A stretch of 64,000 nt of DNA from an uncultured Gammaproteobacteria bacterium (GCA_964537895.1 CAZIDK010000002.1:18287-82286); one strand, 5' to 3'. Shown: positions 5,377-64,000, numbered from the stretch's first letter. The notes: a model not told the origin generated them from the sequence alone. Translations and numbers: made by a program.

Positions 5377-5445
5377 GTCATTTTTTATTCAGTGCAAGGT
5401 TTTTGTGCCCTTCGTCGTTTCACTCTTCAGGGTAAACCCCCTTGC

Positions 5446-5503: not shown

Positions 5504-5530
5504 CTGCACTGAGGTCGTCCGTTGACGACC

Positions 5531-5553
5531 GAAGTGCTGAGGATGTGAGTTCC
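5531..5553 (-). repeat. degenerate copy of tRNA-Val(TAC) 3' end (att-like remnant)
   Basis: GAAGTGCTGAGGATGTGAGTTCC vs tRNA-Val 3' end TGGGTGCTGAGGGACTTGAACC. Confidence 0.45.
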
Positions 5554-5625
5554 TTCGATTTCTCTCAGGATAAACTTCTCCTCACATCCCTCTCTTCATC
5601 AGTCTCAGTTTACACTGAGCCTGCC

Positions 5626-5654
5626 GAAGTGTGCTGAGGATGTGAGTCGAACAC
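5626..5654 (-). repeat. degenerate copy of tRNA-Val(TAC) 3' end (att-like remnant)
   Basis: GAAGTGTGCTGAGGATGTGAGTCGAACAC shares GTGCTGAGG...GAAC with the tRNA-Val 3' end. Confidence 0.45.
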
Positions 5655-5874
5655 ATATAGCCTGTTCTTCAGACAGGTGCCTTGACCACCTTGGCTACCT
5701 CAGCTCGTAATTAAGGTTGTTTTGATGTTTGACGTAGTCAAACACGCATAGTCCCGCCCCGGCGGGATGCCTTTGGTCAACCTTGGCTACCTCAGCTCGT
5801 AAAACATTTTATCAAATCTAGGAACTATACGCTATTCCCTAATATCCAATAACTAGTATCTAGTAACTAAGCTG

Positions 5875-5946
5875 TGGGTGCTGAGGGACTTGAACCCCCG
5901 ACATCTTCGATGTAAACGAAGCGCTCTACCGCTGAGCTAAGCACCC
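5875..5946 (-). tRNA. tRNA-Val (anticodon TAC)
   Basis: Acceptor GGGTGCT/AGCACCC, anticodon stem CTTCG/CGAAG with loop TTTACAT, T-loop TTCAAGT. Confidence 0.75.
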
Positions 5947-5992
5947 TTCGCCGTTCACTCCTCAGGTAAACCCTGTCTGCGCTGAGCGAAGC

Positions 5993-6022
5993 GAAGTGCG
6001 GATGAGAGGAGTCGAACCCTCC
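5993..6022 (-). pseudogene. tRNA 3'-end-like fragment (T-arm plus acceptor 3' strand CATCCGC)
   Basis: Minus strand reads GGAGGGTTCGACTCCTCTCATCCGCA; no complementary 5' half nearby. Same family as the 5531 and 5626 remnants. Confidence 0.4.
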
Positions 6023-6223
6023 TAATTTCAGCATTCGGCTTTTAATTCTATTCGAATACGCCTCTTGCTTCAATTTCAGGAGGGCAAGCCTCCACGCGCA
6101 TTTTTTAAAGTGCACCATCTGGGACGATGTTCGAGCCTATATTACCTCCTCTATTGATCCGAAAGAGAAAGCATTTTTACTAGCAGCTTTCGCCAGATTC
6201 AAAAAGAAAGAAGAGGTAAAACC

Positions 6224-6712
6224 ATGAATTGGTTCAAAACATTCAGATTGACTCCCCAACCTCTCCCAGAGACCGTCTCTATTTTATATGATGAGAGCAC
6301 GTTTTACAACAGATTTAGAGAGGATTTATTGGAGGCTAAACAAGAAGTTATTATCGAAAGCCCTTTTATTACTTCGCGGAGACTTGAGATGTTAAAACCG
6401 GTATTTGAAAAATTAATAGCCAGAGGCGTTGAAGTCTTTATTATGACCCGTGACCCTAACGAACATGACGAATCTTTGTCAAAGCAGGCAGAGGCCGGAA
6501 TACACTATTTTGAAGTTTTAGGAGTACAAGTTTTACTATGCGACGGTGGTCATCACCGAAAGTTAGCTATAATTGACCGGAAAGTTCTCTGGGAAGGAAG
6601 TTTAAACATTCTTTCGCAGTCTCATAGCCGAGAATTTATGAGAAGAATTGATAGCAAGAGTTTGACAGAAGAATTATTTAAATTCCTGAAGCTGAATAGA
6701 CATGTTTATTAA
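6224..6712 (+). CDS. PLD-family single-HKD nuclease (Nuc/NucT-like)
   Basis: HHRKLAIIDRKVLWEGSLNI fits the HxK(x4)D(x6)GSxN motif; 162 aa; paralog at 38216..38680. Confidence 0.65.
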   Translation: MNWFKTFRLTPQPLPETVSILYDESTFYNRFREDLLEAKQEVIIESPFITSRRLEMLKPVFEKLIARGVEVFIMTRDPNEHDESLSKQAEAGIHYFEVLGVQVLLCDGGHHRKLAIIDRKVLWEGSLNILSQSHSREFMRRIDSKSLTEELFKFLKLNRHVY

Positions 6713-6769
6713 ATGAGAATCTAAATTAGTTCTACGACTCAAGATATTCGTAATACGACTCAAAGTAGT

Positions 6770-8044
6770 CTATAAAACACAAATTTTTTCTACTTGCCTT
6801 TTTATCTCCGAATTAATTTTACCCATAAGCAACAATCTTAAATTATTCAATCTAAAATATTTTTTGGCAACTCTTCGTACGTCTTGCGAATTAATAGAAT
6901 TTATCTTATTTATTAATTCATCAGGAGTAATAATTTTTCCATCAGTAGACAACTGGGTAGAGTATAGATAAGCTACTGAATCCGTTGTTTCTAAGTCGTA
7001 TTGCAGTCTTGCTCGTATTTTTTCCTTATTAAATTTTAGCTCTTCATTTGAGACTAATTTTGTTTTAATTTTGCTAATCTGGTCTAATATAATTTCTACT
7101 GCTTTAAGAGTATTATGAGGAGAAACTCCAGTAAAAGCGGAGAATAACCCTGTGTCATTATAATTATAATTATATGCTCCTGCCGTATAGGCAATTCCGA
7201 ATCTATATACTAATTCATAAAACAACGTAGAAGTAACACTTCCCCCAAGCATTTCAGCTATTAACATTAGGGTATACTTGTCTTCATTAAAATAATCTAC
7301 CTCAGTAATAAATCCACAATAAATTTGTACTTGTTCTGAGTTAGATTTTATTAAATTCATGTTACTTTTCTTTGGATATGAATTAACAGCTAAAAACTTT
7401 GTACTGCTATTTTTATTTCTCACATTAAAATAGTTTTCAATATAGCTGCTAACCTCTTGCTCTATAAAATTTCCTACAATAACCATATTCATTTTCGAGG
7501 GAACATAAAATTTGCTTAGATATTTTTGAATTTTTGTCTTATTTAAGCTACTTATATTTTTTAGATCTCCAAGAGTAGATCTTCCAATTGATTGATTTTT
7601 ACCCCAAACCCATTCCATCCATTCATCAAATATTTTAACTTCAGGATTATCATTTCTTCTATTTAATTCTTCTATTACTATTCTTTTTTCCTTTTCTATT
7701 GCGGCTTTATCAATAAGTGAATTAAAAAGAATGTCTGAAAGATAAGCGATTGCTTTTTCTACATATTCAGGTAAAATTTTCACATTGTAGGTAACGTATT
7801 CTTTTTCTGTCCACGCTCCGCTCCTACCACCGACGCTTTCAATGTAATTTGCTAATTTCTTTGCATCATTAAATTTATATGTTCCCTCAAATAACATGTG
7901 CTCTAGAAAGTGCGCTAAGCCAGAATCTTTTTTCTCTTCATATCTAGGACCGGCTTTTACAGTTAGAAACACCGATACTGATTTTGATTCGGAGATGGGA
8001 TTAAGTAAGATTTTTAATCCATTCTTTAGTGAATAATTTTTCAT
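6770..8044 (-). CDS. M16 family zinc peptidase (pitrilysin/PqqL-like); candidate RiPP leader peptidase
   Basis: Inverted zinc motif HFLEHMLFEGT (HxxEH); 424 aa; last gene of the YcaO operon. Confidence 0.7.
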   Translation of the reverse strand: MKNYSLKNGLKILLNPISESKSVSVFLTVKAGPRYEEKKDSGLAHFLEHMLFEGTYKFNDAKKLANYIESVGGRSGAWTEKEYVTYNVKILPEYVEKAIAYLSDILFNSLIDKAAIEKEKRIVIEELNRRNDNPEVKIFDEWMEWVWGKNQSIGRSTLGDLKNISSLNKTKIQKYLSKFYVPSKMNMVIVGNFIEQEVSSYIENYFNVRNKNSSTKFLAVNSYPKKSNMNLIKSNSEQVQIYCGFITEVDYFNEDKYTLMLIAEMLGGSVTSTLFYELVYRFGIAYTAGAYNYNYNDTGLFSAFTGVSPHNTLKAVEIILDQISKIKTKLVSNEELKFNKEKIRARLQYDLETTDSVAYLYSTQLSTDGKIITPDELINKINSINSQDVRRVAKKYFRLNNLRLLLMGKINSEIKRQVEKICVL

Positions 8045-8802
8045 ATTTTGCCTACCGTAATTAAGTATAGCGTAAATTCTTTTTGAAAACTTATATCAAG
8101 TAAGCTATCAAATTTACTATCTATAAATCCCCCTATTACGCAACTCCCTAATTTTAATTCTGTTGATAACAAGCAAATATTTTGGGCTAAATGTCCTGCC
8201 TCAAGAAGAGAATATCTGTATCCTCTGTCCCCGTACTTTATTTTAGTTCTATCCAACACGGTTGTTATTATAAATATTACTGAGGATTTTATAGTCCACA
8301 TTTCTTCTCCTAATGCTTTTATCAGCCACTTACGTAAATCCTTTTCTAATAATATCTCTAAAACATTATTTTTAACATTATAATGATATAATCCTTGCTT
8401 TATCCCTTTGCAATTTAATATTAAAGGGTAAATTTCTAAGGGGTATCTCGCTCCTGCGGATGGATAGTTTCTTTTGCTCGAATCGTAATTCTCGTTTTTA
8501 GTAAAGAAACTTATTCCTCCTGCTGTAAATAGTATTTGCGATAAATCTTTTAAATTAATTGGTTCGCCTGTATAATTTCTAATCGAGCGTCTTTTCTGAA
8601 GAATATTTGCAATGTTAGTTTTTTTGGGATTTTTCAATTTTATTTTGTTTAAGCGTGGGTATGTTTTAAAATGGATTTTTACCCATGACTCAGGATAATC
8701 AGAAAGGTTAAAATGTCCCAACGTTTTATTTTCGGTTTTTCTGTGAAATTTTTCAGAGACAGATTTTTTTTCTTGAATTAGTAATTTATTTACGTTACCC
8801 AT
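8041..8802 (-). CDS. SagB-type (McbC-like) FMN-dependent dehydrogenase, nitroreductase fold
   Basis: PSAGARYPLE...RYSLLEAGHLAQNICL...GSCVIGGF typical of TOMM dehydrogenases; 4-nt overlap with neighbours. Confidence 0.7.
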   Translation of the reverse strand: MGNVNKLLIQEKKSVSEKFHRKTENKTLGHFNLSDYPESWVKIHFKTYPRLNKIKLKNPKKTNIANILQKRRSIRNYTGEPINLKDLSQILFTAGGISFFTKNENYDSSKRNYPSAGARYPLEIYPLILNCKGIKQGLYHYNVKNNVLEILLEKDLRKWLIKALGEEMWTIKSSVIFIITTVLDRTKIKYGDRGYRYSLLEAGHLAQNICLLSTELKLGSCVIGGFIDSKFDSLLDISFQKEFTLYLITVGKI

Positions 8803-8804
8803 AA

Positions 8805-10115
8805 TTATAAAAATGGGTGTGGAACTTTATTTAAACCTGCTTCGTTTTTCTTAGTAAATCCTAGTTTAGGAGGAACATCGTATAATCTTTTACTTCCCAA
8901 AAACTTATATTTTTCATTCAGGTACAAAGGCTGCAACTCTGGAATTAAAGTTCTTATTACAAAAAATCCGGCATTTTTTATTACTTTTGGCGTTATGTCT
9001 TTGTAGATTATGTTCATACCATTGTCAATCAACGATTTTAAAGTTTTCTCCAGTTTATTATCAGATTTCTTTTTCGTGTCTATTCTTATAATATTTTTAT
9101 TCTTCAGCCAAAAATTTAAATGCTCTATCATTTGTGTTGGAAACCACAATAATGCTCTTTGTTCAATGTTCTCTATTTTTATGACTTTTTTAGATTTAGG
9201 ATTTATATAGAAAGATTTATCTCTTATCCAAGATCTTGTCATTAAAGATTCCTCGATTGCTCCTATTATACAATTCTTTGTTTCCCATCCGGCTTTAAGT
9301 CCTAATGAAATAGCTGGGCCTAATCCAGTTTTATCAATAACGAGTGCTCCAAACACCGGAATTCCAATATCCATTGTTAAATCCAAAACAAAAACCTCTA
9401 ACTTATATCGTCCTAAAATATCTAATATTTTATCAATCTTAGTATCGTTTAATGATTTTAGATCTATTCTTGGAGAAGGAAGCTTATTAAGATAACTTAT
9501 CACAAAAGCATCTCTTTCAATCGCTTCACATAGGGCTCTATAGAGAGCTTCATCAAAAGTAAGACCAAACGCTGTGCCAGTTGAATTAATAGGCATTATT
9601 TCAGGTTCCCCATCGATTAAAGAGTGATTAAATGATATTAGCTGAGAAGGAATAAGTATCTTCTTGTTTTTATTTAGAAATACAGCTTCACTCCACGAGA
9701 ATTTGGAGCTATTTCTGATTACAAATTTACTATTTTCTCTCTGTTTCAACTGTCTTACGGAAAATGGGGATATTCTTAGTGGCTTTAAATATTGTCCTAG
9801 TTTACTTATTTCTGTAATTGAACCTTTTGCTACGATTTTAGGTTTATAAATATCTAGAGAATATCTTTCGAGCGCTTCTCCCAAGACTTTTACTAAAGCT
9901 AATTTTTTATCAAAAGAGAATCCACTTGCAATATTAAGATTATCTTTACGCTTACTCTTATATTTTATTCCGTAGTTAAATATCTTGGGCTCATCATTAT
10001 ATTGGGGATCTCTATAAATTCCATTTACTATTATGTTTTCTTTTAAAACAAAATCTGCAATTTTGTCTAAAACAGAACACAATCCATTATTGACTAGTAT
10101 ATTTTTACTACTCAT
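8805..10115 (-). CDS. YcaO-domain cyclodehydratase (SagD-like)
   Basis: GEALERYS N-motif, STGTAFGLTFDEALYRALCEAIERDAF ATP-binding/YcaO signature, Pro-rich C-terminus VPHPFL. Confidence 0.8.
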   Translation of the reverse strand: MSSKNILVNNGLCSVLDKIADFVLKENIIVNGIYRDPQYNDEPKIFNYGIKYKSKRKDNLNIASGFSFDKKLALVKVLGEALERYSLDIYKPKIVAKGSITEISKLGQYLKPLRISPFSVRQLKQRENSKFVIRNSSKFSWSEAVFLNKNKKILIPSQLISFNHSLIDGEPEIMPINSTGTAFGLTFDEALYRALCEAIERDAFVISYLNKLPSPRIDLKSLNDTKIDKILDILGRYKLEVFVLDLTMDIGIPVFGALVIDKTGLGPAISLGLKAGWETKNCIIGAIEESLMTRSWIRDKSFYINPKSKKVIKIENIEQRALLWFPTQMIEHLNFWLKNKNIIRIDTKKKSDNKLEKTLKSLIDNGMNIIYKDITPKVIKNAGFFVIRTLIPELQPLYLNEKYKFLGSKRLYDVPPKLGFTKKNEAGLNKVPHPFL

Positions 10116-38014: not shown

Positions 38015-38215
38015 TTAAAACTTTATGCTAGGACAATTATACAATAAGAGGATGGGTTTATTTGGGTATTTAAGGTGTTTGCCATAAGGCTTCAAAATCC
38101 GAAATTGTGAGCCGTAGCGGGGTCAGGTGGAACCAGATATTCGATTCCCTGATCCTAACTTCCCACAAACTCATTAAACTAGGCTTTACATATTATAACG
38201 GAAAAGTAGCCATAA

Positions 38216-38680
38216 TTGAAAGTAGCGAGGAGGATTCCAGTGTTTAACTCCTCTCTTTACGATGAAACAACTTTTTATAGTGCTTTTTTGAGAGATTTAG
38301 AGACATGCAAAGAGGAAGTTTTTATTGAGAGTCCGTTTATTACTCAAAGAAGGGCTCAACAGTTAATTCCTGTATTTAATAGGCTTTTGTCTAAGGGAAT
38401 AAAAATTTATGTTATGACCAGAGATCCAAAGGAGCACGAAGAAGGTATGGAATATCAGTCAGAAGATACGATAAGAACATTTGAGATTATGGGAGTTCAA
38501 GTCTTGCTATGTGTTGGTAATCATCACAGAAAACTAGCAATCCTTGATAGAAAAATACTTTGGGAAGGAAGTCTTAACATCCTTTCCCAAACACAAAGCC
38601 GGGAAATAATGAGAAGGATTGAAAACAAGGAGCTGACAGAAGAAATGTTTAGTTTTTTGAATTTGAGCAGATTTTTATAA
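38216..38680 (+). CDS. PLD-family single-HKD nuclease, paralog 2
   Basis: NHHRKLAILDRKILWEGSLNILSQ; aligns end-to-end with 6224..6712. Confidence 0.65.
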   Translation: MKVARRIPVFNSSLYDETTFYSAFLRDLETCKEEVFIESPFITQRRAQQLIPVFNRLLSKGIKIYVMTRDPKEHEEGMEYQSEDTIRTFEIMGVQVLLCVGNHHRKLAILDRKILWEGSLNILSQTQSREIMRRIENKELTEEMFSFLNLSRFL

Positions 38681-38683
38681 ATT

Positions 38684-38884
38684 TTGGTATACTGCAGGGA
38701 ACAAACTATGTATAGCGAAGAACAAATACAAAAAATGATCGAAAAGATTAAAAAAATTAAACCGGAAGAAGCTACTAGAGAAAGAGCAATCAAAGTATTA
38801 AATATGTTACCAAAAGTTGCTAACGACATTGCAAAGGCTTTGAAGCAATTAGTTAAAGAGTCGGAAAAGAAACTTTCAAATTAA
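38684..38884 (+). CDS. small charged helical protein
   Basis: 66 aa, 4 nt after the PLD gene. Confidence 0.35.
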   Translation: MVYCREQTMYSEEQIQKMIEKIKKIKPEEATRERAIKVLNMLPKVANDIAKALKQLVKESEKKLSN

Positions 38885-39105
38885 ACAGGTACCACATCCG
38901 AAGATTTTAGTTTTAATACTTTAGCAATTTTAGCCATAACTTTAGATCCCGGACTGTCTATTTCTCCCCGCTCAATCATAGAATAATAATTCGAAGTTAT
39001 ACCTACTTTTTCGGCAACATCAGATTGTTTTAATCCTAAACTTTTCCTTGCATTTTTTAAAGTTTTACCTATTCTTTCTTGAGAATTCACAACGTAATTA
39101 TACAT
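38881..39105 (-). CDS. XRE-family HTH transcriptional regulator
   Basis: LGLKQSDVAEKVGITSNYYSMIERGE Cro/C1-type HTH. Confidence 0.7.
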   Translation of the reverse strand: MYNYVVNSQERIGKTLKNARKSLGLKQSDVAEKVGITSNYYSMIERGEIDSPGSKVMAKIAKVLKLKSSDVVPV

Positions 39106-39311
39106 CCTTTACTTAAAATTTGCTCTATTTTCAGTTTTACAGAATATGCAAAAGGTTTGATACAATACTAATAATGATTGGTTTCTTTAAACAAAAAGAC
39201 CAAAAACCTTTTAGCTACTCCTCAATTGAAATGAGAAAAAATTCCCGAGGTTATTATAAATGGATTGCAGTTATTATTATTTTTATAGCTATCTTATTTA
39301 TTCTCTTCTTT

Positions 39312-40445
39312 TTAAAGTGAGTTAAGAAACTCCTTGATAGTCGTTCCTCGTAAAGCTACCCAAGCAGCAATAAACGTCGTTATGGGAACAGCTAAGATTA
39401 ACGCACTGCTCCCAACAATGCTCTTTATAATCTCCTCCATTGTGGATTCATTATTTAGAATTACCCAGATAGGTAAATGCATTGGATTTATTTCAAAAAA
39501 TATTAGAACAGCCAAAGAAGATCCTGTAAAAGCAAGTATAAGAGTGTTTATTAAAGAAGCAATATGTTCTTTGCCGATATCCATTCCCTTGCTAAACAAC
39601 TCCGATAGTTTTTGCTTTGGATTTTCCTTAACTAAAGTAAATATGGTTATTGACTGGGTAGTAGTTATGTCGTTTAATGCCCCCAAAGTTGCTATAAGTA
39701 TACCTCCCAAGAGTAAGCCTTTAGGATTTATTGAAGTTCCCATTTGTAAATTGTAAATATCTTCACTCCCAAGTCCTGTTGTTTTCATTAAATCTACAAT
39801 TGTTGTTGCAAGCCATCCCGCTATTAAAAATGCTAGAGAAGTACCCAATATCGCAACCGTTGTTTTAAGAGAGATTCCATGGGCAATATACGTAGTAGTA
39901 ACAAGAATAATAAATCCTCCAATAATGCAGGTTTGCAAAGGATCCTGCCCGTGTAATATCTGAGGAATGATCCATAAAATGATAATTGCAAGGCTTACCG
40001 CAAGCCCTATGATCGCCCCAATGCCCTTTTTCCCTCCAATAAAACCGATTAGCAACATAAAAGCAATTAATACTAAGAGTAGAGAATTTAATCTATAAGG
40101 TTCATATATCGCATATTGTGTACCTCCTTTTAAATATTGCTTACTGTTTACAACTACAGTATCTCCAGGATTTATAGTTAGAGAAGTTTTAGGATCGCCG
40201 GACATTTCAATAACCACAGTCTTTCCTTTTTCTTTGCCGTCAAGTAGCTGAACTTTAAATTTTTGGTTTAAATTCTTTTGACCATAAGTTGTTTGTAATT
40301 TTTGACTAAGAATTGAAATTATCTTTCCTTGAATAAAAGATTCTTTAAAGTTTAGATTGCCGGGCACTTGAGCAAAAGTTGAAGAGGCAAACATAAAGGC
40401 AAAAACCAAGAAGGATATTAATATAAAAAGAGTTTTCTTTAACAT
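39312..40445 (-). CDS. YibE/F-family membrane protein
   Basis: Secreted N-terminal domain then about 7 TM helices; GQDPLQTCIIGGF region. Confidence 0.5.
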   Translation of the reverse strand: MLKKTLFILISFLVFAFMFASSTFAQVPGNLNFKESFIQGKIISILSQKLQTTYGQKNLNQKFKVQLLDGKEKGKTVVIEMSGDPKTSLTINPGDTVVVNSKQYLKGGTQYAIYEPYRLNSLLLVLIAFMLLIGFIGGKKGIGAIIGLAVSLAIIILWIIPQILHGQDPLQTCIIGGFIILVTTTYIAHGISLKTTVAILGTSLAFLIAGWLATTIVDLMKTTGLGSEDIYNLQMGTSINPKGLLLGGILIATLGALNDITTTQSITIFTLVKENPKQKLSELFSKGMDIGKEHIASLINTLILAFTGSSLAVLIFFEINPMHLPIWVILNNESTMEEIIKSIVGSSALILAVPITTFIAAWVALRGTTIKEFLNSL

Positions 40446-40555
40446 ATTGAGAATTATATCAAAATTATCAATTACCTAACTAATTACAAAGGAGAAAATA
40501 TTACTACTTGACAGATGCAAATGAGTTGCATATACTATGTGCAAGTGAATTGCAT

Positions 40556-41440
40556 ATGAAAATAGCATTAGCCGGAAAAGGCGGAACAGGAAAAACTACA
40601 GTAACCACTCTTATAACATCTTATTTAGCAAAAGATGCTAAGGTTTTGGCATTTGATATTGATTCTAACGAAAATCTTGCTCACTCTCTTGGTTTTTCAT
40701 CGGAAAGCATTTCAAAATTAGAACGAATAAGAAACTTCTATAACGATATTTTTAACTACACAAAAACGGATTTTGATTGGAAGATTAGAAAATATACTCC
40801 TCAACCCGATGCAAATTATTATTTTTTCAAAAACGGGACTATGGACTCTTTCTTAAAGAAGATAACCATAACTAAAGGCAACGTCTCAGTTGGTCATCTT
40901 GGAACTGTAAGCGAAGAAAATAGGGGCATAGAAAATATGTGCGAATCATATACGCTTATGCGAATTTTCCTTAATCATTTAAAAGAAGACAAAAAAGATT
41001 TTGTAATTGCTGACCTAGCAGCTGGAAATGATTTATTAACACGAGCAACGGTAATGAACATGGATGAAATAATACTTGTTGTTGAACCGGCAAGTAAAAA
41101 CCTTACCGTAGCAAAGGATATTCTAATTTCTCTTGAAAAGCTTTTGTTTACAAGAATTTATATCGTTGTCAACAAGAGTTTTGACGAAAAGGATATTAAG
41201 TTGGTTCAAAAGGAGCTTAAAGTAGATAAGAAATTTATAACAAGAATTCCTTTTTCCAAAGAACTACTAATGCTTGATAATAAAAACGATTTGACTTTTG
41301 ATTCTGCGCCAAAAGAAGTAAGAAAGGAGATTGAAGAGTTGTTAGAAAATATAAAAAGAAATGCTATAGACGAAAAAAAGCTTATAAAAAGAGCCTCTCA
41401 TATCGATGCAAGACTTTTTTCTGACGCTCCCTCTTTATAA
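40556..41440 (+). CDS. ParA/MinD/CooC-family P-loop ATPase
   Basis: Deviant Walker A KGGTGKTT at N-terminus (start set at the internal ATG). Confidence 0.6.
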   Translation: MKIALAGKGGTGKTTVTTLITSYLAKDAKVLAFDIDSNENLAHSLGFSSESISKLERIRNFYNDIFNYTKTDFDWKIRKYTPQPDANYYFFKNGTMDSFLKKITITKGNVSVGHLGTVSEENRGIENMCESYTLMRIFLNHLKEDKKDFVIADLAAGNDLLTRATVMNMDEIILVVEPASKNLTVAKDILISLEKLLFTRIYIVVNKSFDEKDIKLVQKELKVDKKFITRIPFSKELLMLDNKNDLTFDSAPKEVRKEIEELLENIKRNAIDEKKLIKRASHIDARLFSDAPSL

Positions 41441-41442
41441 AT

Positions 41443-42309
41443 ATGAAAGGAATAGTAATTGTAACAGGGGCAAACTTCAGAGAATCCAAAAGGTTATTTA
41501 ATAATACCGATAAGTCACTACTTGTTGAACACGAAGGAAAAAAACTTAAATTCAACGCTGGAGCAGCAACAGCTATCGTTTTAAATCAAGCAGATTACCT
41601 TGTGTATATGACGGGTGCTTCTTTTGAAAACCTGGAAATAATAGCAAAACAACTTAAAGGAGAATTTTACTTTGAAGAAATAGATTTACTAGATAAAAGT
41701 GCTGTTAAAAAACTTGCAGATAACATAAAAAACCTTAAAGAAAAAACTGGACTTGACGTTCATATTGTACATTATGGCGGGGCATCTGAAACTAAAGTTC
41801 CGCTTCCCAGAAATACCATCTATTTGGATCCATACGAAACACCAAGTGAAGCAATTTCACCGATGATCGATTATAACTGCGTTACTTGGCTTAACTTAAT
41901 TCAGGCGCTTAAGGAAGTAACTCAGAGTCAAAAGATAACAAAAAATATTGTTATATCAGCAGTAGCAGCTATAAGAACTGGACGCTTCTTTCTTCTGGAC
42001 GCAATACAAAAAGGAGCAGTGCATTCAATGGCAAGAACCCTTGCAGTAGATTTAACTAAAGAAAATATGTTTATTACAGAAATCATGCCGGGGATTACCG
42101 ATACGGGATTTTATGATACAGATGAAACGTTAGACGCTACAATCCAAATCTCGAAAGAGTACGGATACGAATATCCTAGTAAAGATGACTTGCCAGTACT
42201 TCCTGCACAAAGAATTGCTGATTCAATAAAATTTGTGTTAGATACACCAGCTCATATTAGAGAAATATCCTTAATTCCATTTGGGCAATATCCCCAACTT
42301 GGAGCATAA
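41443..42309 (+). CDS. Rossmann-fold SDR-like protein, catalytic Tyr apparently replaced
   Basis: IVTGAN N-terminus; DAIQK where SDRs have YxxxK. Confidence 0.35.
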   Translation: MKGIVIVTGANFRESKRLFNNTDKSLLVEHEGKKLKFNAGAATAIVLNQADYLVYMTGASFENLEIIAKQLKGEFYFEEIDLLDKSAVKKLADNIKNLKEKTGLDVHIVHYGGASETKVPLPRNTIYLDPYETPSEAISPMIDYNCVTWLNLIQALKEVTQSQKITKNIVISAVAAIRTGRFFLLDAIQKGAVHSMARTLAVDLTKENMFITEIMPGITDTGFYDTDETLDATIQISKEYGYEYPSKDDLPVLPAQRIADSIKFVLDTPAHIREISLIPFGQYPQLGA

Positions 42310-42323
42310 AGGAGGTGAAATAA

Positions 42324-42488
42324 ATGAAATTTTATAACGTTAAGACAAGACAACCAGTAGAAATAGATGACAGTAAAGTAACAGTTGTAACAATGAAAAA
42401 CGGTAAAAAAGCAGCAAAAGCAGAAGACAATGGAGTTGGACTTTTTAAGATATTAAGTAACGAAGATGCAGCGAGACTATCAAAATAG
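42324..42488 (+). CDS. small protein (54 aa)
   Basis: Strong SD AGGAGGTG 6 nt upstream; MKFYNVKTRQPVEIDDSKVTVVTMKNGKKAAKAEDNGVGLFKILSNEDAARLSK; followed by two hairpins. Confidence 0.45.
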   Translation: MKFYNVKTRQPVEIDDSKVTVVTMKNGKKAAKAEDNGVGLFKILSNEDAARLSK

Positions 42489-42577
42489 GACATTTGGCCA
42501 AATGCCTTTGCTCGGCATTTTACACAATAATACTAAAAGCCTTTGAAAAAAGGGCTTTTAGTATGTAAAATACATAT

Positions 42578-43006
42578 ATGAAAACTCACGATTGTAGAAA
42601 TGAACTTAACGACTTCAATTTAAGAGCCACCCCTGCCAGAGTGGCAACCATGAAGTGTTTGGAAACCATTGATAAACCGGTTGATGTAAACTCTATAATT
42701 GATTACCTCAAAACAGAAAATGTAGATGTCGACCCAGCAACAATTTTCAGAATGATGAATTTATTCATGGAAAGGGGTTTAATAAAACAGATTAGATTCC
42801 AAGACGCTATCACCAGGTATGAACTATCTAATAAAGGAGACCACCATCATTTAATTTGCGAGAGCTGCGGCAAAATTGAAGCGATATCCGATACCGTTTT
42901 TCCCATAATGGAAAAATATATTAAGGAAAAAAGTAAGTTTAAAGTTAAAAGCCACTCCCTTGAAGTATTCGGAATTTGTGAGGACTGTCAAAAGCACACA
43001 TCTTGA
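42578..43006 (+). CDS. Fur-family metal-responsive transcriptional regulator
   Basis: HHHLICESCGKIEA...CEDCQ metal-binding motifs. Confidence 0.8.
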   Translation: MKTHDCRNELNDFNLRATPARVATMKCLETIDKPVDVNSIIDYLKTENVDVDPATIFRMMNLFMERGLIKQIRFQDAITRYELSNKGDHHHLICESCGKIEAISDTVFPIMEKYIKEKSKFKVKSHSLEVFGICEDCQKHTS

Positions 43007-43049
43007 GTTGTGGGAAATTATAGATTTCCTACAAAATTTGAAACTAATT

Positions 43050-43667
43050 TTAATTCCCACTTCCCAAAAATACTCTCGGATTTACAGGTAATCCAAATAC
43101 ATTTATTTGAAAATGTAAATGTGGTCCCGTTGACCAACCTGAACTTCCCTCTAAAGCAATAATATCCCCGGGTTTTACTTCTTGTCCCGGATATACAAAT
43201 ATTTTGTTTAAGTGACCGTAGAGTGAAGTTATATTATCTCCATGATCAATAATAATATGTTTTCCGTATCCCCAGAATATTTCTCCTGCATATATTACTT
43301 TACCCTTCATAAAAGGAGTAATCGGATCTCCCTGCAAACCATATGGATTAGCAATATCAATTCCTGTATGAAAGATCTGATAAGGCCAGTCTGATTCTCC
43401 GAATTCAAGAGTAATTACACCTTTAACAGGCCATGTAATCACAGGCTTAATTTCTTTTATCACCTCTCCCGTTAACGGGTCATAAATCTGAATTGTATTT
43501 GTTTTGGAATCAAAAGAGGTTAATGAATCTGAAACTATATTTACTCCAACATTCATTAAAATAATAACGGCAATAATGGGAAGTGAAATTGCTATTAAGA
43601 ATGAAAGGATTACAAGTTTGAGTTCTCTTCTAAAATTCCAGAGATTTATAAATTTAAATATAATCAT
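43050..43667 (-). CDS. M23 family metallopeptidase
   Basis: HTGIDIA (HxxxD) and GPHLHFQI (HxH) motifs. Confidence 0.75.
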   Translation of the reverse strand: MIIFKFINLWNFRRELKLVILSFLIAISLPIIAVIILMNVGVNIVSDSLTSFDSKTNTIQIYDPLTGEVIKEIKPVITWPVKGVITLEFGESDWPYQIFHTGIDIANPYGLQGDPITPFMKGKVIYAGEIFWGYGKHIIIDHGDNITSLYGHLNKIFVYPGQEVKPGDIIALEGSSGWSTGPHLHFQINVFGLPVNPRVFLGSGN

Positions 43668-44926
43668 GCAGAATATATTTCTCTAGGATCTGTTGTAAGT
43701 AGTGGATGTTCTTTGTCGGATGCAACTACTTTTAAAGCAACATGATTCTGATCCGCAATTATTAAAGCCTCTCCTTTGTCGCAGGTTAAAAGAAAATGCT
43801 GTTCATATTCACTTAAATTAAATTCACTGGCAACTTTTTTAATGGTGGTTGTATCCTGTTTCATTAAGATCCTTAAAGAAGACTGCGAAGCAATCGCTCT
43901 TCCGTAGTCTTGAGAAAGAAAATCATTTGCCTGTTGGGAAATAATAGTTACTCCTAAATAGTATTTTCTTGCCCGTCTTGTAAGGCCTGCGATAAATCTT
44001 GCGCTTTCTTCGTGAGCAAGTAATATCCATCCCTCGTCAATTACAAGTATTCTTTTTTGCGGATTTAGTTTTACTTGTGAATTGACAAAGTTTGCAACTA
44101 CCATCATCATAACTTGTCTTAATGATTCGTCTAAATCTTTAATGTCAAAAACAACAAGCCTGTTTGATAGCTCGATATTTGTATGTTCATTAAATACGCT
44201 AGACAGGGAACCCTTAATATATTTCTCAAGTTTTTGGCTTAATTTCTTCTGTTTAAGCTGTTTAAGTGTTTTATAAAAATCTTTAAGTAGCGGATATGTT
44301 TTTTGTTTTGGTTTTCTGCCCCTAGTGTCTTTTTTCTTTTTCGGTTTATAACCGGGGTTTAATAGCCAGCCGAAATTTTTATATGTTTGAATGATTGCCT
44401 TATCAACAATTCCTTTTTCTTCTGCACTTAATCCTCCAATCATAAGAGAGATAATTTCAGTTAAGTCTTGAACATGTTCTGAAAGTTCACTCTCTCCGTT
44501 TTTAAGATTAATAGATAAATCAAAAGGATTAATTTTTTCTTTTGATTTGGTTGATAATTTTATATACGTTCCGTTTACGGAATTAGTTAATTGTTTGTAT
44601 TCCCGTTCCGGGTCAATGACAATTACTTTTGTTTGCTGCATAAGTTGTCTTAATATTTCTACTTTTGCGGTGTAGCTTTTTCCACTTCCGCTTTGTGCAA
44701 AGATTATGCTGTTTGCGTTATTTAAGGAAAACCTGTCAACAATAACAAGCGAGTTATTTGACTTATTAATGCCATACAAAATTCCTGATTCCTGTACCAG
44801 CTCTGATGAAACAAAAGGAAAAGTAAGAGCAGCCGAAGAACTGTCTAAATTTCTTTTTTGGGAAAGTTGGTTTTCTCCTCTTGGTAAAACGGATTGTAAT
44901 CCTTCAAGCTGTTGAAAGCTTTTCAT
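43664..44926 (-). CDS. VirB4/TraC-like ATPase, C-terminal domain only
   Basis: AQSGSGKSY Walker A, VIDEGW Walker B; only 420 aa vs about 800 for a full VirB4. Confidence 0.5.
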   Translation of the reverse strand: MKSFQQLEGLQSVLPRGENQLSQKRNLDSSSAALTFPFVSSELVQESGILYGINKSNNSLVIVDRFSLNNANSIIFAQSGSGKSYTAKVEILRQLMQQTKVIVIDPEREYKQLTNSVNGTYIKLSTKSKEKINPFDLSINLKNGESELSEHVQDLTEIISLMIGGLSAEEKGIVDKAIIQTYKNFGWLLNPGYKPKKKKDTRGRKPKQKTYPLLKDFYKTLKQLKQKKLSQKLEKYIKGSLSSVFNEHTNIELSNRLVVFDIKDLDESLRQVMMMVVANFVNSQVKLNPQKRILVIDEGWILLAHEESARFIAGLTRRARKYYLGVTIISQQANDFLSQDYGRAIASQSSLRILMKQDTTTIKKVASEFNLSEYEQHFLLTCDKGEALIIADQNHVALKVVASDKEHPLLTTDPREIYSA

Positions 44927-45040
44927 ACTCTCTTAGGCAGGTGGACAGAAGCTATAAAATTATTGAGCGAAGTATATCACAAACGTGTTACCGATGTATC
45001 TCATCTTCTGCATGCATTTCAAACCAAATTTTTTGGAGGT

Positions 45041-45430
45041 TTATCTTTCCCAAACTTTATCTTCTGGAGCGAAATCAACTTGATGTTCAGGAATTCCAAT
45101 AGAAATACCATATTCCTTAGCATCTTTGTAAAGCACAGGATTGTTTAAATCAACTTTAAAAATTTTAGCTCTGTAAATTATGTAATGGTATTTATCATTT
45201 TTATAATCGGCGTACCATTTATGTTCTTTGTCCAATGAGTTACTTATTTCATTTGCGATGTCGCCTGCACTTTCTTCGAGAACTTCAACTGTGTCCAATG
45301 TCCATTGTAAAAGCCAAGGAGTCTTATGTTCCGAGGTAACCTTTTCAGTCTTTGTGCTTAATACGTTAACTTTATTTAGAACCGATTTATCATCCAAACT
45401 TTCTTCAATAATTACGCCTTTAAAATTCAT
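45041..45430 (-). CDS. hypothetical protein
   Basis: 129-aa ORF. Confidence 0.4.
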   Translation of the reverse strand: MNFKGVIIEESLDDKSVLNKVNVLSTKTEKVTSEHKTPWLLQWTLDTVEVLEESAGDIANEISNSLDKEHKWYADYKNDKYHYIIYRAKIFKVDLNNPVLYKDAKEYGISIGIPEHQVDFAPEDKVWER

Positions 45431-45590
45431 AACCTAATTATATCATCCGAGTCTGCAAAACCAAATTTTCCGGTGTATTTATCACCATTAATTGTTGTTA
45501 AAACCTAGAGTATTTAGCCCCTTGACAGCTATTCCTATAAGGGATATATTATAAATATAGTTATAATATGAAGCTAAATTCTGCACCATC

Positions 45591-45791
45591 ATGAATCAAA
45601 TAGAATTGATAAATCAGGCTCAAGATAAAGTTAAAAAAGTAGGCAGAAAGGTTAAGCTTGCAATATCAACTTTATCCCCGGAAGAACGATTAGATTCCTT
45701 AGCAAATATCGTTATTGAGCGAATTCTTGAAGAAAACCAAAACCCCAAATTACCAGCAATACCAACTAATAAAGGAGATTTAACCATATGA
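45591..45791 (+). CDS. small protein overlapping the recombinase start (candidate directionality/accessory factor)
   Basis: 66 aa, 4-nt overlap with the recombinase gene. Confidence 0.35.
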   Translation: MNQIELINQAQDKVKKVGRKVKLAISTLSPEERLDSLANIVIERILEENQNPKLPAIPTNKGDLTI

Positions 45792-47512
45792 GTGAACCAT
45801 TATTATTAAATAACGCAGTAGCAGCGATTCGTATATCTTCAACCAAGCAAGGCTTGCAAGGCGATTCCCCACAAGCGCAAAAAGAGCAAATAGAACAATT
45901 TGCTATTGCTCACAATATAAACGTCAAAAAGTTCTTTATTTTTATGGAATCTGCGTCAAAAGAAGTGCAACCTGTGCAAGAGGCTATAGACTATTGTAAG
46001 AGCCCAAAAAACGATATACAGCTATTTATAATCAAATCCATAGATAGATTCACTAGGGGCGGTTCATACCTCTACGATCATCTTAAAATGCAGCTTACCC
46101 GTCATAATGTAAAGCTTATTGATATTTATGGCATTATCAGCAATCAGGAGGTTAATACGCTTGAGCATTTGGGACTTCAATATGATTGGAGCGTCTATTC
46201 TCCTACCAAAAAGTCTGAAATTTTAGAAGCAGAACGAGCTAAAGACGAGATTCGAGATATCTTAAGCAGAATGATAGGTGCTGAAATTAGATACGTTAGA
46301 ATGGGCTACAGAGTCAGACCGGCCCCTTTTGGTTATATGAATGAAAAAATAGATACTCCTCACGGAAGAAGAGTAATTCTAAAGCCAGACACTACGGAAG
46401 CGCCATTAATTATTAAAATGTTTGAACTAAGGACTAAGAAAACCTTAACGGATGAGGAAATTGTCAAAGAGGTTAATAAAATAGGATATAAATCCAGAGT
46501 TCATTTATTAAGAGACGGTAAGGATAAGACAATAGTAATAGGACAAAGGGGCGGTATAAAACTTGATGTAAAACGATACGTAGAATACATTCGAAAACCA
46601 ATTTACGCAGGAATAAACGATGAAAAGTGGACCAATAACGAACCAGTTAAAACAAAATTTCCGGGATTAGTTTCTGTAGAAACGTTTAATCAGGCAAACA
46701 GAGGAAAAGTTGTCCTGTCGGAAGAAAACGGAGGGATAACTATTTATAAAAACATGCCTGAAGAATGGAGACTGAGAAAATCCGTCAAAAATCCTGATTA
46801 TCCTTTTAAGCGATATGTTCTTTGTCCAACTTGCAGATATCCGTTATATGGCAGTGCTTCAAGAGGCAGTAACGGAACACGCTACCCTGCATATCACTGT
46901 AATAAAAGAAATCATTATTTCAGAGTAACCGTAGAAACATTTGAGCAAACTATTAAAAACTTCGTAAGTAAAGTCAGAGTTACGAAGGATGGCGTAGATA
47001 AACTAAAAGAAAGAGTATTAAAAAAATGGCAAGATAATCTAATTAAAGGTCAGCTAGATGTTGAAACTATCGATGAGAAAATTAAAAAATTAGATGGTGA
47101 GAAAACACTAATCGGAAACCAAATACCAAGACTTACATCTGATGAAGGCATTAAGCTAATGGAAGAAAAATTAAGCGAAGTTACAAACGAGATTAAACAA
47201 TTAACTGAAACTAAAACAAAACAAGAAGATTTAAATGTAAATATGGAGATAGTTTTGGCAATAGTTGGGGAATTTCTGGAAAACTTATCGTTTTTATTGC
47301 TAGGAAGCCCTAATCCTCTTAAGAGAGCAGCCTATTTTGGACTTATATTTGAACAGACTCCAACCTATCAAGATCTAATTTCTGGAACTGCTCAATTAGC
47401 TCCCTATTTCGAGCTAATCGATGATGCAGGGTATCCAAACCCCGCTACTGTGAGCCGCCTGAGAGTCGAACTCAGAACCTATTCCTTAAGAGGGAATTGC
47501 TCTGCCAGTTGA
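45788..47512 (+). CDS. large serine recombinase (resolvase/invertase N-domain, recombinase domain, zinc ribbon)
   Basis: AIRISSTKQ catalytic Ser region, SIDRFTRG, CPTCRYP...YHCNKRNH zinc ribbon; last ~20 codons are read through the tRNA-Lys complement. Confidence 0.75.
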   Translation: MSEPLLLNNAVAAIRISSTKQGLQGDSPQAQKEQIEQFAIAHNINVKKFFIFMESASKEVQPVQEAIDYCKSPKNDIQLFIIKSIDRFTRGGSYLYDHLKMQLTRHNVKLIDIYGIISNQEVNTLEHLGLQYDWSVYSPTKKSEILEAERAKDEIRDILSRMIGAEIRYVRMGYRVRPAPFGYMNEKIDTPHGRRVILKPDTTEAPLIIKMFELRTKKTLTDEEIVKEVNKIGYKSRVHLLRDGKDKTIVIGQRGGIKLDVKRYVEYIRKPIYAGINDEKWTNNEPVKTKFPGLVSVETFNQANRGKVVLSEENGGITIYKNMPEEWRLRKSVKNPDYPFKRYVLCPTCRYPLYGSASRGSNGTRYPAYHCNKRNHYFRVTVETFEQTIKNFVSKVRVTKDGVDKLKERVLKKWQDNLIKGQLDVETIDEKIKKLDGEKTLIGNQIPRLTSDEGIKLMEEKLSEVTNEIKQLTETKTKQEDLNVNMEIVLAIVGEFLENLSFLLLGSPNPLKRAAYFGLIFEQTPTYQDLISGTAQLAPYFELIDDAGYPNPATVSRLRVELRTYSLRGNCSAS

Positions 47513-47523
47513 GCTAGCGGCCC
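47451..47523 (-). tRNA. tRNA-Lys (anticodon CTT)
   Basis: Acceptor GGGCCGC/GCGGCTC, anticodon stem ATTCC/GGAAT with loop CTCTTAA, T-loop TTCGACT. Confidence 0.7.
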
Positions 47524-53829: not shown

Positions 53830-54126
53830 GTGCTCACTTTAATGTACACTCACGGTATGATACAGACAATACCGGTAACAGAAGCTAGAAAGAAACTTCT
53901 TAGTCTTGTAGATGAGATAAATGACGCATATACAAGAGTAGATTTAACTAAAAACGGGAGGATTAAAGCTACTTTAGTTTCTCCAGACTATCTTGATTCC
54001 TTAGAAGAAACAATTTACAGTCTTAATAACTCTTTATCGGATATTAATCTTGCTCAAAAAGAATTAAAACAAGGCAAACTTTTAACTCTGGAAGAAGTTA
54101 AAAAGAAATATAATAAAAAACAATAA
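53830..54126 (+). CDS. Phd/YefM-family antitoxin
   Basis: IPVTEARKKLLSLVDEI... typical Phd/YefM N-terminus. Confidence 0.65.
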   Translation: MLTLMYTHGMIQTIPVTEARKKLLSLVDEINDAYTRVDLTKNGRIKATLVSPDYLDSLEETIYSLNNSLSDINLAQKELKQGKLLTLEEVKKKYNKKQ

Positions 54127-54132
54127 CTTCAA

Positions 54133-54390
54133 ATGTCAGCAAAAAAACTACAATTAGCTCAAAGCGTTGATAAAAATCTATCAAAACTGCCAAAACATAT
54201 TCAGACAAAAATAATTTCTTCCTTTGATAAAATAATGCAAAATCCAGTTTCTGGTATTAAGTTGCATGGAGAGCTTAAGGATTATTATAAGTTTAGAGTC
54301 GGGGATTATCGTATAATATACAGCTTTAACTCGAAAGAAAGCTTAATACAAATAGTTAAAATAGAACATAGGCAAGGTGTATATAGATAG
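54133..54390 (+). CDS. RelE/ParE-family toxin
   Basis: 85 aa; DYYKFRVGDYRIIY core typical of RelE/ParE; 6 nt after the antitoxin. Confidence 0.65.
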   Translation: MSAKKLQLAQSVDKNLSKLPKHIQTKIISSFDKIMQNPVSGIKLHGELKDYYKFRVGDYRIIYSFNSKESLIQIVKIEHRQGVYR

Positions 54391-62470: not shown

Positions 62471-64000
62471 CAATGAAGATAAAAAATAGCCATACTATAG
62501 CTGTGATTAGAAAAGCGATAGGATATGTTCGCATATCAACAGAAGACCAATCTCAATTCTCACTAGAAAATCAGGATGATTATATCCGCAAGGAAACAGA
62601 TAGGCAAGAATACGAACTTATAAGGATATTCTCCGATTCCGGTTATAGCGCAAAGACAACAAACAGACCCGGACTTATTGAACTCCTTGAATTTTGCAGA
62701 AAAAATAAAGACACCATCTCTGCCCTATTTATTTACAAATATGATAGGCTTTCCCGTGATACTTATGATTTCTTAGGCATTAAAAAGAAACTATCGGAAT
62801 ATGGGATAAGAGTAATATCCTGCACTGAACCGACTGATGATACTTTTTCAGGGGAGTTTCTACAAACAATACTATCCGCAGCAGCAAAACTTGATAATCA
62901 AATGAGAGGACAAAGAGCATTAGATGGAATGAAAAAAAGATTTGAATCAGGTTGGTATGCCGCAGGAAGACCGCCTCTTGGATATATAAACACTGTTGTT
63001 GAAGGAAGAAAGATTATTGAACGTAATCCAAAGACTTTTGATTTAGTTAAAAGAGCTTGGGAAGAAATGTCAAACGGAACTCAATCTTTATTTACTATTT
63101 CAAAGCTTATGAAAAAATGGGGACTTTCGGTTCACAAACAAACAGTTAATAGAATATTTAGGAACAATTTCTATATTGGGATAATTACGAGCAAAAGATG
63201 GAATTTAGAAAAAAGAGGATTACATAATCAAATGGTAACTGAAGAAGTTTTTTATCGTGTACAGTCAATCCTAGATGGCAGGAGCAATACTGCAAAACCA
63301 AGAGAGAGAAATAATCCTACTTTTCCACTTAGAGGATTCGTAAAATGTGGAGAATGCCTAGCTCCGCTAACCGGAGCATGGGCAAAAGGTTCAACTAAGA
63401 AGTATGCTTATTATTACTGCTCCAAAAGAACACATAAAATAATAAATATTTCTAAGGATACTTTAGAAGAAGAATTTGTAAAACTGTTAAAAAGACTATC
63501 TCCTGCTCCTGAAGTTATAAAACTATTTACTGAACAGGTTAAAGCAAAATGGCATCAAAGATATAAAGAGTTGTATAAACAACAAGATTGGTTAAAAATG
63601 GATATAGAGAAGTTAGAAGAACGGAAGTTAAGCATTGGCAAGAAAAACGCAGACGGTGTTATTCCCGATGATCTATGCAAAGAGCTGTTAGCAAAGGCAG
63701 ATGTTGAGTTAATAGCGAAGAAATCTATTGCGAATGAATCAACTCTAGCTCAAGTTGATATAGATACTTTAACAAACTTTATGAGTGTGTTCTTAAAAGA
63801 CTTATCCAAAGCATGGCTTGATGGCAATCTTGATCAGAGGCAAATCCTAGTTAGTTCGATAATGCCAAAAGGTGTGGTCTTTAAGGATTATGCTTATCAA
63901 ACTAATCAAATAAGTCATTCCTTCCTATTACAGCAAGCTAATCGCAATTCTTCTGCCATAGATGGAACGTTCAGTGAGCCGGACAGGATTCGAACCTGTG
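62471..64000 (+). CDS. large serine recombinase (runs off window; 3' end overlaps a tRNA on the opposite strand)
   Basis: YVRISTEDQ catalytic Ser, DRLSRD, recombinase domain, CGEC...YYYCSKR zinc ribbon; no stop before window end. Confidence 0.8.
63975..64000 (-). tRNA. partial tRNA (3' end: T-arm plus acceptor), identity undetermined
   Basis: Minus strand reads ACAGG-TTCGAAT-CCTGT-CCGGCTC-A; remainder lies beyond the window. Confidence 0.6.

Follow-up and report, generated by a model that had tools for sequence, protein, structure and literature searches.

The 64,000 nucleotides analysed here (GCA_964537895.1, CAZIDK010000002.1:18287-82286; the window) contain at positions 38106-47456 what is, with a probability of roughly 0.85, an integrated mobile element which was inserted by a large serine integrase at the extreme 3' end of a tRNA-Lys(CTT) gene, and whose own attachment (att) site, attP, lies inside the integrase open reading frame (ORF). 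The gene content of the element and of its relatives marks it as an apparent decayed DNA-transfer (conjugative) element of an ultra-small bacterium of the candidate phyla radiation (CPR). The integrase gene, a serine recombinase ORF of 574 amino acids (aa) at 45788-47512 (+), enters the convergent tRNA-Lys(CTT) at 47450-47523 (-), located by ARAGORN as tRNA-Lys(ctt), as an original prediction made from the sequence alone had stated. That prediction took the end of the recombinase gene to be the antisense of the 3' half of the tRNA; the overlap is real, but its extent was understated, as it amounts to 63 nt, or 21 codons, and spans nucleotides 12-74, almost the whole tRNA. The att core shared within this long overlap is just 8 bp.

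Two direct copies of the 8-bp sequence TGTGAGCC, at 38106-38113 (intergenic, left of the PLD-like gene) and at 47449-47456, delimit the element, which has a length of 9,343 bp. Its left end thus lies 5 kb beyond the earlier coordinates, which placed the start of the element at 43050 and made it about half its present length, and the left boundary repeat that had been reported as not findable exists. The search then recommended, for further copies of the last 15-20 nucleotides of the tRNA, gave no boundary: no second copy turned up for the 21-mer at the tRNA 3' end, even when 3 mismatches were allowed, or in a general search for repeats (seed of at least 10), and tRNA repeats of at least 12 nt were not found within 10 kb upstream in 55 related loci. 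The searches for repeats of at least 12 nt failed because the shared core is only 8 bp, and the absence of such repeats fits a serine integrase, because few shared bases are needed.

The flanks of the two core copies complete the boundary. On the element-internal side they form perfect 10-nt inverted arms, the symmetry that the half-sites of a serine-integrase attP should show, and about 30 nt out on each side the sequence TCGATT (38141-38146, in the P' arm) mirrors AATCGA (47416-47421, in the P arm). The 9-mer arms CCCCGCTAC and GTAGCGGGG are both single-copy in the 64 kb and directly abut the repeats, and the 18-mer consisting of the core and the adjoining P' arm has no match in 100 shuffles (0/100), even when 3 mismatches are allowed. 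The reconstructed attP reads …CCCCGCTAC TGTGAGCC GTAGCGGGG… and the reconstructed target site, attB, reads …CCGAAAT TGTGAGCC GCCTGAGAG…, with the predicted junction sequences …ATCCAAACCCCGCTACTGTGAGCCGTAGCGGGGTCAGGTGG… and …CAAAATCCGAAATTGTGAGCCGCCTGAGAGTCGAAC…, respectively; attP spans about 70-80 bp at the 3' end of the integrase gene, and attB comprises the last 7 nucleotides of the tRNA together with flanking DNA. Short att sites with inverted half-sites, a minimal core and no long direct repeats are the arrangement characteristic of serine integrases. The site of strand exchange is probably inside the 8-bp core, at the GTG corresponding to tRNA positions 72-74 or directly beside it, because the sequence common to the attP of a relative (L164) and the attR of an 80%-identical relative at tRNA-Arg (L174) ends at …TTAGTG.

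The reading frame of the integrase carries the second line of evidence. When position 47456 is joined in silico to position 38114, the frame is kept and the recombinase becomes a protein of 600 aa ending in …SRSGVRWNQIFDSLILTSHKLIKLGFTYYNGKVAIIESSEEDSSV. In the integrated form the last 44 codons of this joined gene are stranded at the left end of the element, and the ORF instead reads 18 antisense-tRNA codons and a stop; the integrated gene ends wherever the antisense tRNA supplies a stop codon. The orphan tail is uninterrupted by stops or frameshifts and shows homology to natural or orphaned C-termini of related recombinases, the joined tail being 56-65% identical to the natural end of homolog P0057, which has 599 aa and ends in …SRGWNTIFTDILDLFEKLKALGFTYYNGRVAIIEILEEPAHV, and to the orphan tails of L006 and L080; the tails of P0021 and P0009 are also related to it. 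Between the window and L164, the contig which encodes P0057, 22 of 39 tail codons specify the same amino acid, 11 of those being synonymously different, while 17 codons differ non-synonymously, and the stretch LGFTYYNG(K/R)VAIIE is conserved despite synonymous changes. Because synonymous differences occur at conserved residues, the reading frame of the tail is under selection at the protein level.

Recombinase ORFs with an uninterrupted attP form, of 591-599 aa, exist naturally. The L164 contig carries in succession the 599-aa recombinase, a PLD-like gene, a small ORF, an XRE regulator (-), an M23 peptidase (-) and the end of a VirB4 gene (-), each 49-73% identical to its counterpart in the window, and this order is the circular permutation of the window element that is predicted for its joined form. 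The contig which encodes P0009, found in three samples (L171, L172 and L173), contains AAACCCCGCTAC-TGTGAGCC, identical to the P arm and core of the window, followed by non-tRNA sequence encoding the native tail, and it also holds a Replic_Relax gene and a 910-aa coupling protein. The earlier proposal that the attP core lies within the 3' end of the integrase gene is thus borne out by the 8-bp core, the 600-aa joined ORF and these attP-form relatives. A further family integrase with a native attP-form tail, in L165 (536-4945), has a tyrosine integrase 1.7 kb downstream on the same contig.

The tRNA itself can be followed in a relative that lacks the element. The metagenome contig L088 is syntenic with the window on both sides, with flanking proteins at about 80% aa identity, and has both tRNA-Arg and tRNA-Lys(ctt) but no counterpart of any gene in the interval 38216-47449; the 74 nt of its tRNA-Lys are identical to those of the window, and nucleotide identity ends right after …GGCTCACA. 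Because it is identical in a syntenic relative without the element, the tRNA-Lys of the window is a host gene. The same metagenome scan found this tRNA unoccupied at the syntenic site in L086 as well, and in both contigs the adjacent genes differ from those of the window. The comparison with relatives that had been proposed therefore succeeded in part, yielding an unoccupied identical tRNA in L088 but no clean empty site. A contig of 38 kb from another sample of this organism (L082, SRR13723396_6521) ends 45 nt past the RNase HII gene, inside the tRNA-Arg which adjoins the integration site.

L088 and L164 together bear on whether the element could be only 4.4 kb long (43050-47523), with the genes from PLD to Fur belonging to the host. 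The Fur, SDR, ParA-like and YibE/F genes do have the look of housekeeping genes or cargo, the region is uniform in base composition, and a PLD-like paralogue occurs elsewhere in the window. The shorter element is nevertheless very improbable: the att core with its P' arm is at 38106-38123 rather than near 43050, the orphan tail sequence and PLD gene directly follow the recombinase in L164, and L088 is without the entire 38216-47449 block.

The overlap of recombinase and tRNA is not peculiar to the window. More than 1,600 homologs of the recombinase were detected (E <= 1e-5), the best of them 55-83% identical and about 575 aa long, the named ones belonging to Patescibacteria, and their C-terminal tails nearly all resemble the translated antisense of a tRNA T-arm, in all three frames. 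Eighty genome loci were examined together with the window (81 loci, with flanks limited to 10 kb). The ORF ends inside a convergent tRNA in 55 of the 66 informative loci; the partner tRNAs are Lys-CTT/TTT, Glu-CTC/TTC, Gln, Arg, Val, Ile, Ser and Asp, and a constant interval of about 62-66 nt separates the conserved coding motif …SGTPKLAPY… from the tRNA 3' end. Because so many related ORFs end in convergent tRNAs at constant spacing, the overlap is a property of the family and not a product of chance. At 16 of the 81 loci the contig breaks off exactly where the recombinase gene ends (L011, L014, L015, L019, L020, L027, L039, L041, L043, L065, L068, L071, L075, L076, L078 and L079), a pattern which would be expected if the assembly met a mixture of integrated and excised forms or a repeated tRNA sequence.

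That the overlap recurs in most relatives might itself suggest core synteny, with a resident recombinase that converges on the tRNA by chance or a tRNA that is carried by the element. Such an origin has next to no probability when the partner tRNA varies over eight amino-acid specificities, the spacing is fixed to the nucleotide range expected of a recombination site, the same tRNA is unoccupied at the syntenic site in L088 and L086, and un-integrated forms exist without any tRNA. The pattern that the original prediction had named as contrary to it, conserved core synteny without flanking repeats, is accordingly not the one observed: the tRNAs differ, flanking repeats are present, and the tRNA of L088 is unoccupied.

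The assignment of the enzyme to the large serine integrases depends mainly on its predicted fold. Its sequence contains a Resolvase N-terminal domain (Pfam; residues 11-114, 32 bits against a cut-off of 23.3) and a sub-threshold match to Zn_ribbon_recom (18.3 bits), and PF07508 is recorded for many homologs. The motif AAIRISSTKQG, in which R15, S17 and S18 are invariant across 24-30 homologs, provides the nucleophilic serine of a catalytic domain, C346, C349, H370 and C371 are invariant in the family, and the window copy keeps every invariant residue. Searches of the Protein Data Bank (PDB) with the sequence and with a profile gave no serine recombinase match, and the fold search alone succeeded: Foldseek aligned the AlphaFold model over about 569 columns with full-length complexes of serine integrases and att sites (9y66, 9dxd and 9dxf; E = 4.5e-14) at an identity of 14-15%. 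The model comprises an α/β catalytic domain, a long helix, a mixed domain, and β-hairpins (354-397) followed by two long helices (399-479), as in a recombinase domain and a zinc ribbon with its coiled coil. The recombinase is thus taken from its modelled structure to be a large serine integrase, as had been proposed. Its start overlaps a small upstream gene which is present in 66 of the 81 loci, with the motif EERLxIFANLIIDRIIEDQ, and whose product is a candidate integrase accessory or directionality factor. Near the right end of the window, at about 62509-63828 (+), lies another serine recombinase, which is only distantly related to the element integrase (about 22% identity by tblastn).

The proposed sequence of events is as follows. 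In the free circular form, the gene encodes an integrase of about 600 aa with the conserved tail. Recombination within the 8-bp identity of attP and attB inserts the element with its integrase beside the tRNA, stranding the last 44 codons at the far end and giving the gene a tRNA-antisense tail, and the tRNA is restored exactly because the core is identical in attP and attB. The small upstream protein would control the direction of recombination. Because the native tail is conserved, it may be expected to have a function, and that function would be lost on integration. A tentative extension of this scheme, for which the odds are well short of even, is that the tail swap acts as a state sensor: the conserved and amphipathic tail of the 600-aa form would be needed for integration between attP and attB, or would bias the enzyme towards it, and the tRNA-tailed form, the only one that the integrated gene can make, would be altered in activity, stability or directionality; the widespread orphan type IV coupling proteins (T4CPs) of Patescibacteria and at least some of their type IV secretion system (T4SS) clusters would lie on active conjugative or mobilizable elements, with Replic_Relax as the missing relaxase. 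If this is true, the control of direction resides partly in DNA topology and not only in a separate factor.

Several observations weigh against integration at the tRNA with attP inside the integrase ORF. The structure model, with a mean pLDDT of 66, has moderate quality and gives no reliable information on the tail. A search across the loci for the inverted arms with the core detected an attL within 10 kb in the window only; it missed the others because most relatives exceed the 10-kb flank or have imperfect arms, and attL sites in relatives were located by tblastn with the tail peptide. The relatives L171 and L169 do not share the perfect symmetry of the 10-nt arms that is seen in the window attP. 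L088 is not a clean empty site, as a 3.6-kb HlyD/ABC/FtsX operon, which the window does not have, lies between its tRNA and the left-flank gene; the left junction is consequently unconfirmed by comparison and rests on the att architecture and on the evidence from the tail and the attP forms. No empty attB or circle was seen for this organism, since all four contigs (4/4), retrieved from two samples by exact-protein look-ups, are integrated. The five attP-form contigs have no terminal overlaps; they are not closed circles and could be tandem arrays.

The nature of the element is indicated by the genes of its relatives. A coupling protein of about 866 aa (TrwB_AAD_bind, TraG-D_C) is present in 62 of the 81 loci and a Replic_Relax protein in 53, with DUF2958 in 35 and ArdC-like proteins in 9. 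The order in L018, and in L008 and L169 taken together, is PLD, XRE, M23, VirB4, TraC-like, a 172-aa protein, a 429-aa pilin-domain protein, a VirB2-like pilin, cargo, DUF2958, Replic_Relax, T4CP, small protein, recombinase and tRNA; L018 holds all of the conjugation components, and L008 and L169 hold all but an intact T4CP, which is fragmented there. L169 and L008 are the two ends of a second integrated case, on a 751-kb Levybacteria contig (CAWBPM010000002.1), in which the same TGTGAGCC flanks about 23.7 kb, from an in-frame orphan tail with a PLD-like gene (L169) to a recombinase/tRNA-Lys(ttt) junction (L008), and encloses VirB2, VirB4, M23, a type III restriction-modification system, DUF2958, Replic_Relax and the T4CP fragments. 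Full-length relatives are about 24 kb long and contain a complete monoderm-type type IV secretion module. Because the relatives carry T4CP and Replic_Relax, and the full-length copies the complete module, the family consists of integrative conjugative elements (ICEs) or mobilizable elements of Patescibacteria; the full-length relatives would transfer by conjugation, with Replic_Relax as a putative relaxase.

The same neighbours bear on the case of a defective prophage, whose lysin would be the M23 peptidase and whose packaging or transfer protein would be the ATPase. Phages do carry serine integrases and lysins of the M23 type, but neither the window element nor any related locus has genes for capsid, tail or terminase, the ATPase belongs with VirB4 families, relatives have VirB2-like pilins, T4CP, Replic_Relax, DUF2958 and ArdC-like proteins as neighbours, and a scan of IMG/VR found no relatives of the element family, so that a phage origin is extremely doubtful.

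Other members of the family are broken or incomplete. L006 (6304-10376) is a remnant without recombinase at tRNA-Lys(ctt), with an orphan tail and a GGCTCACA repeat at its far end and its tRNA-proximal arm lost; the same contig also holds a separate intact member at tRNA-Arg. In L080 a recombinase fragment which has lost a large internal part (1-272) continues into the native tail, ahead of the PLD gene, and a second, N-terminally truncated recombinase lies at tRNA-Lys(ctt) (4469-6030); the arrangement is tandem or decayed, or else circular and integrated forms were combined in the assembly. The secretion modules of L166 and L167 have no recombinase or orphan tail within reach, and not all modules need be mobile. 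In these two loci a diversity-generating retroelement (reverse transcriptase and bAvd; L166 324-3841, L167 3743-7260) adjoins the VirB2-like pilin genes, which may be its diversification target.

In the window, no T4CP, Replic_Relax, pilin or VirB6-like gene was found, and the VirB4-type ATPase is without about 190 N-terminal residues. The VirB4 fragment matches the Pfam family P-loop_TraG/AAA_10 and positions 348-734 of the 752 in the NCBIfam model conju_CD1110, and is 93-97% identical to full-length homologs. The view of the VirB4 fragment and M23 peptidase as the remnant of a transfer module is upheld, since relatives carry the full type IV secretion module. No homolog in related loci and no family match were found for the 129-aa ORF at 45041-45430. 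XRE and M23 genes are adjacent, or nearly so, in L164, L166 and L169, and it is between these genes that the window copy has gained its 3.7-kb cargo block. Its coupling protein and relaxase-like gene, and the greater part of its secretion module, have been lost. The integrase and att sites define an excisable unit, and a complete set of mating-pair genes, T4CP and relaxase is missing. Judged by its genes, the window copy is a decayed, non-self-transmissible derivative rather than an ICE, with an intact integration and excision module; it is probably still able to excise, because its att sites, integrase ORF and orphan tail are all intact, and self-transfer would be impossible. On its own it is an ordinary decayed island.

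In a further alternative, the element integrated as described and is now a fixed, immobile relic whose recombinase is kept by chance or for another role. The truncated VirB4, the absence of T4CP and the relaxase-like gene, the integrated state of all four contigs from two samples, and the related remnants with no recombinase (L006) or truncated ones (L080, L003) are what a relic would leave. A relic is nonetheless somewhat unlikely, as both att cores and the 10-nt arms are perfect, the recombinase retains all invariant residues of the family, the orphan tail is uninterrupted and matches relatives at the protein level, and the high identity of the VirB4 fragment to intact genes implies recent decay. 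Across 119 listed non-self homologs (P0122-P0134 compared), VirB4 is 82-97% identical, the named homologs being from Daviesbacteria or unclassified Patescibacteria; this identity is far above that of the integrase (55-83%) or of host flank proteins, and suggests recent horizontal spread or very strong constraint.

The window integrase resembles the characterised large serine integrases (phiC31, Bxb1, A118/LI, TP901-1, SPbeta SprA, Tn5397 TndX and Tn4451 TnpX) in its catalytic domain, helix E, recombinase domain and zinc ribbon with inserted coiled coil, in its short att sites with inverted half-sites and few bp common to attP and attB, and in having a candidate for the small, separately encoded partner protein. 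The use of serine integrases by conjugative elements, of which Tn5397 is an example, is also common to the window family. Characterised large serine integrases mostly target protein-coding genes; the window integrase differs from them in targeting a tRNA 3' end, in having attP within its own ORF so that its C-terminus changes on integration, in its Patescibacteria hosts, and in a sequence too distant for a PDB match. With the tRNA islands and ICEs of tyrosine integrases it shares the position of the integrase at the island end beside the tRNA 3' end, the regeneration of the tRNA from element sequence and the variety of tRNAs used by related integrases, and it differs from them in recombinase superfamily and chemistry and in its core, which is 8 bp long and not tens of bp; neither the tyrosine integrase nor the repeats, usually of at least 15 nt, by which tRNA islands are classically recognised are present.

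Genes that bear attP have also been described elsewhere: the int gene of SSV-type archaeal elements is split on integration, and in the integration-dependent immunity of mycobacteriophages integration truncates the repressor. In these systems, as in the window, the product of the attP-bearing gene changes, and free and integrated forms encode different proteins. They use tyrosine recombinases, whereas the window element exchanges only the last 44 residues of its serine integrase for an arbitrary tRNA-antisense peptide; the separation of the 3' part of the ORF by integration, which defines such systems, is found both in the window and in L169/L008. The archaeal cases have been reviewed (PMC8371274).

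The T4SS of Patescibacteria has been described as MPF-FATA-like, with VirB4, pilins, PrgI/TrsD-like proteins and hydrolases, and as chromosomal, mostly without relaxases and probably co-opted; few canonical relaxases were found and the missing relaxase is still to be found, and integrases and tRNAs are not mentioned (PMC12102498). The modules of the present relatives match that system in their VirB2-like pilins, 429-aa pilin-domain protein, TraC/TrsD-like protein, VirB4 (CD1110/MPF-FATA type) and peptidase, and differ from it in that at least some of them are enclosed by the att sites of a serine integrase at a tRNA and are accompanied by T4CP and Replic_Relax. The literature search returned no description of this integrase family or of tRNA-targeting serine integrases, no report of secretion modules in Patescibacteria bounded by integrase and tRNA, and no serine integrase whose gene spans attP.

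The integrase combines features that are known separately, namely a serine integrase, a tRNA 3' target, attP in its own ORF and a conjugative-type carrier, and the interest of the system resides in the integrase family and its implications for mobile DNA in Patescibacteria, not in the window copy itself. If the proposed reading is true, these serine integrases form a large clade that had not been described before and whose target, the final nucleotides of tRNA genes, is simple, conserved and predictable, and its attP/attB pairs can be reconstructed and could be used as integration tools and as markers which delimit the mobile DNA of Patescibacteria. To our knowledge there are no genetic tools and no mobile-element catalogue for this group. 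The free and integrated states would encode different enzymes, because the integrase gene spans its own attP, and coupling proteins, a candidate non-canonical relaxase and whole secretion modules would be placed inside bounded, tRNA-inserted elements, which would bear on whether ultra-small episymbionts conjugate or their secretion system is purely a device for interaction with the host.

Table 1. Features of the integrated element and its target, in window coordinates
Feature	Position	Strand	Remarks
attL core, left copy of TGTGAGCC	38106..38113	+	Core + P' arm 18-mer unique in window
Orphan coding sequence, native recombinase C-terminal tail (…SRSGVRWNQIFDSLILTSHKLIKLGFTYYNGKVAIIESSEEDSSV*)	38110..38247	+	In frame with 45788-47456 once joined
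P' arm of attP; GTAGCGGGGT at 38114-38123	38114..38153	+	Perfect inverted copy of P arm
PLD-like (PLDc_2) nuclease-family gene, leftmost of element	38216..38680	+	Directly after recombinase in L164; adjoins orphan tail in L080 and L169
Small ORF, 66 aa, conserved beside PLD-like gene	38684..38884	+	49% identity to L164 60-aa ORF
XRE-type helix-turn-helix regulator	38881..39105	-	In 15 related loci
Cargo block: YibE/F (39312-40445, -), ParA/CbiA-like ATPase (40508-41440, +), SDR (41443-42309, +), 54-aa ORF (42324-42488, +), Fur (42578-43006, +)	39312..43006		Absent from related elements
M23 peptidase, 205 aa, cell-wall hydrolase of type IV secretion module	43050..43667	-	Always adjoins VirB4 in relatives
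5'-truncated VirB4-type ATPase, 420 aa	43664..44926	-	Aligns to residues ~190-592 of 593-604-aa homologs
129-aa ORF at deletion scar	45041..45430	-	Replaces rest of secretion module, relaxase-like gene and coupling protein
Small protein gene, candidate accessory or directionality factor	45591..45791	+	66 aa; overlaps recombinase start by 4 nt
Large serine recombinase, integrated form, 574 aa	45788..47512	+	Last 18 codons and stop from tRNA antisense
P arm of attP, inside recombinase ORF; ACCCCGCTAC at 47439-47448	47409..47448	+	P arm and core identical in natural attP of L171
attR core, right copy of TGTGAGCC	47449..47456	+	Antisense of tRNA-Lys nucleotides 68-74 plus one base
Host tRNA-Lys(CTT), integration target, intact	47450..47523	-	ARAGORN; 74/74 nt same as L088 tRNA

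The PLD-like gene was considered as a specific marker of the element and rejected, as a paralogue occurs elsewhere in the window, at 6224-6712 (+); this paralogue is 55-68% identical to the PLD genes of the elements and directly follows a tRNA-Gly/Phe/Val cluster (5024-5946, -). A cluster of YcaO, nitroreductase-like and M16 peptidase genes comes after the paralogue in a stretch of low GC content (about 0.30), and the region at 6224-10115 may be a peptide-modification island. The host flank also contains a Phd/YefM-ParE toxin-antitoxin pair at 53830-54390.

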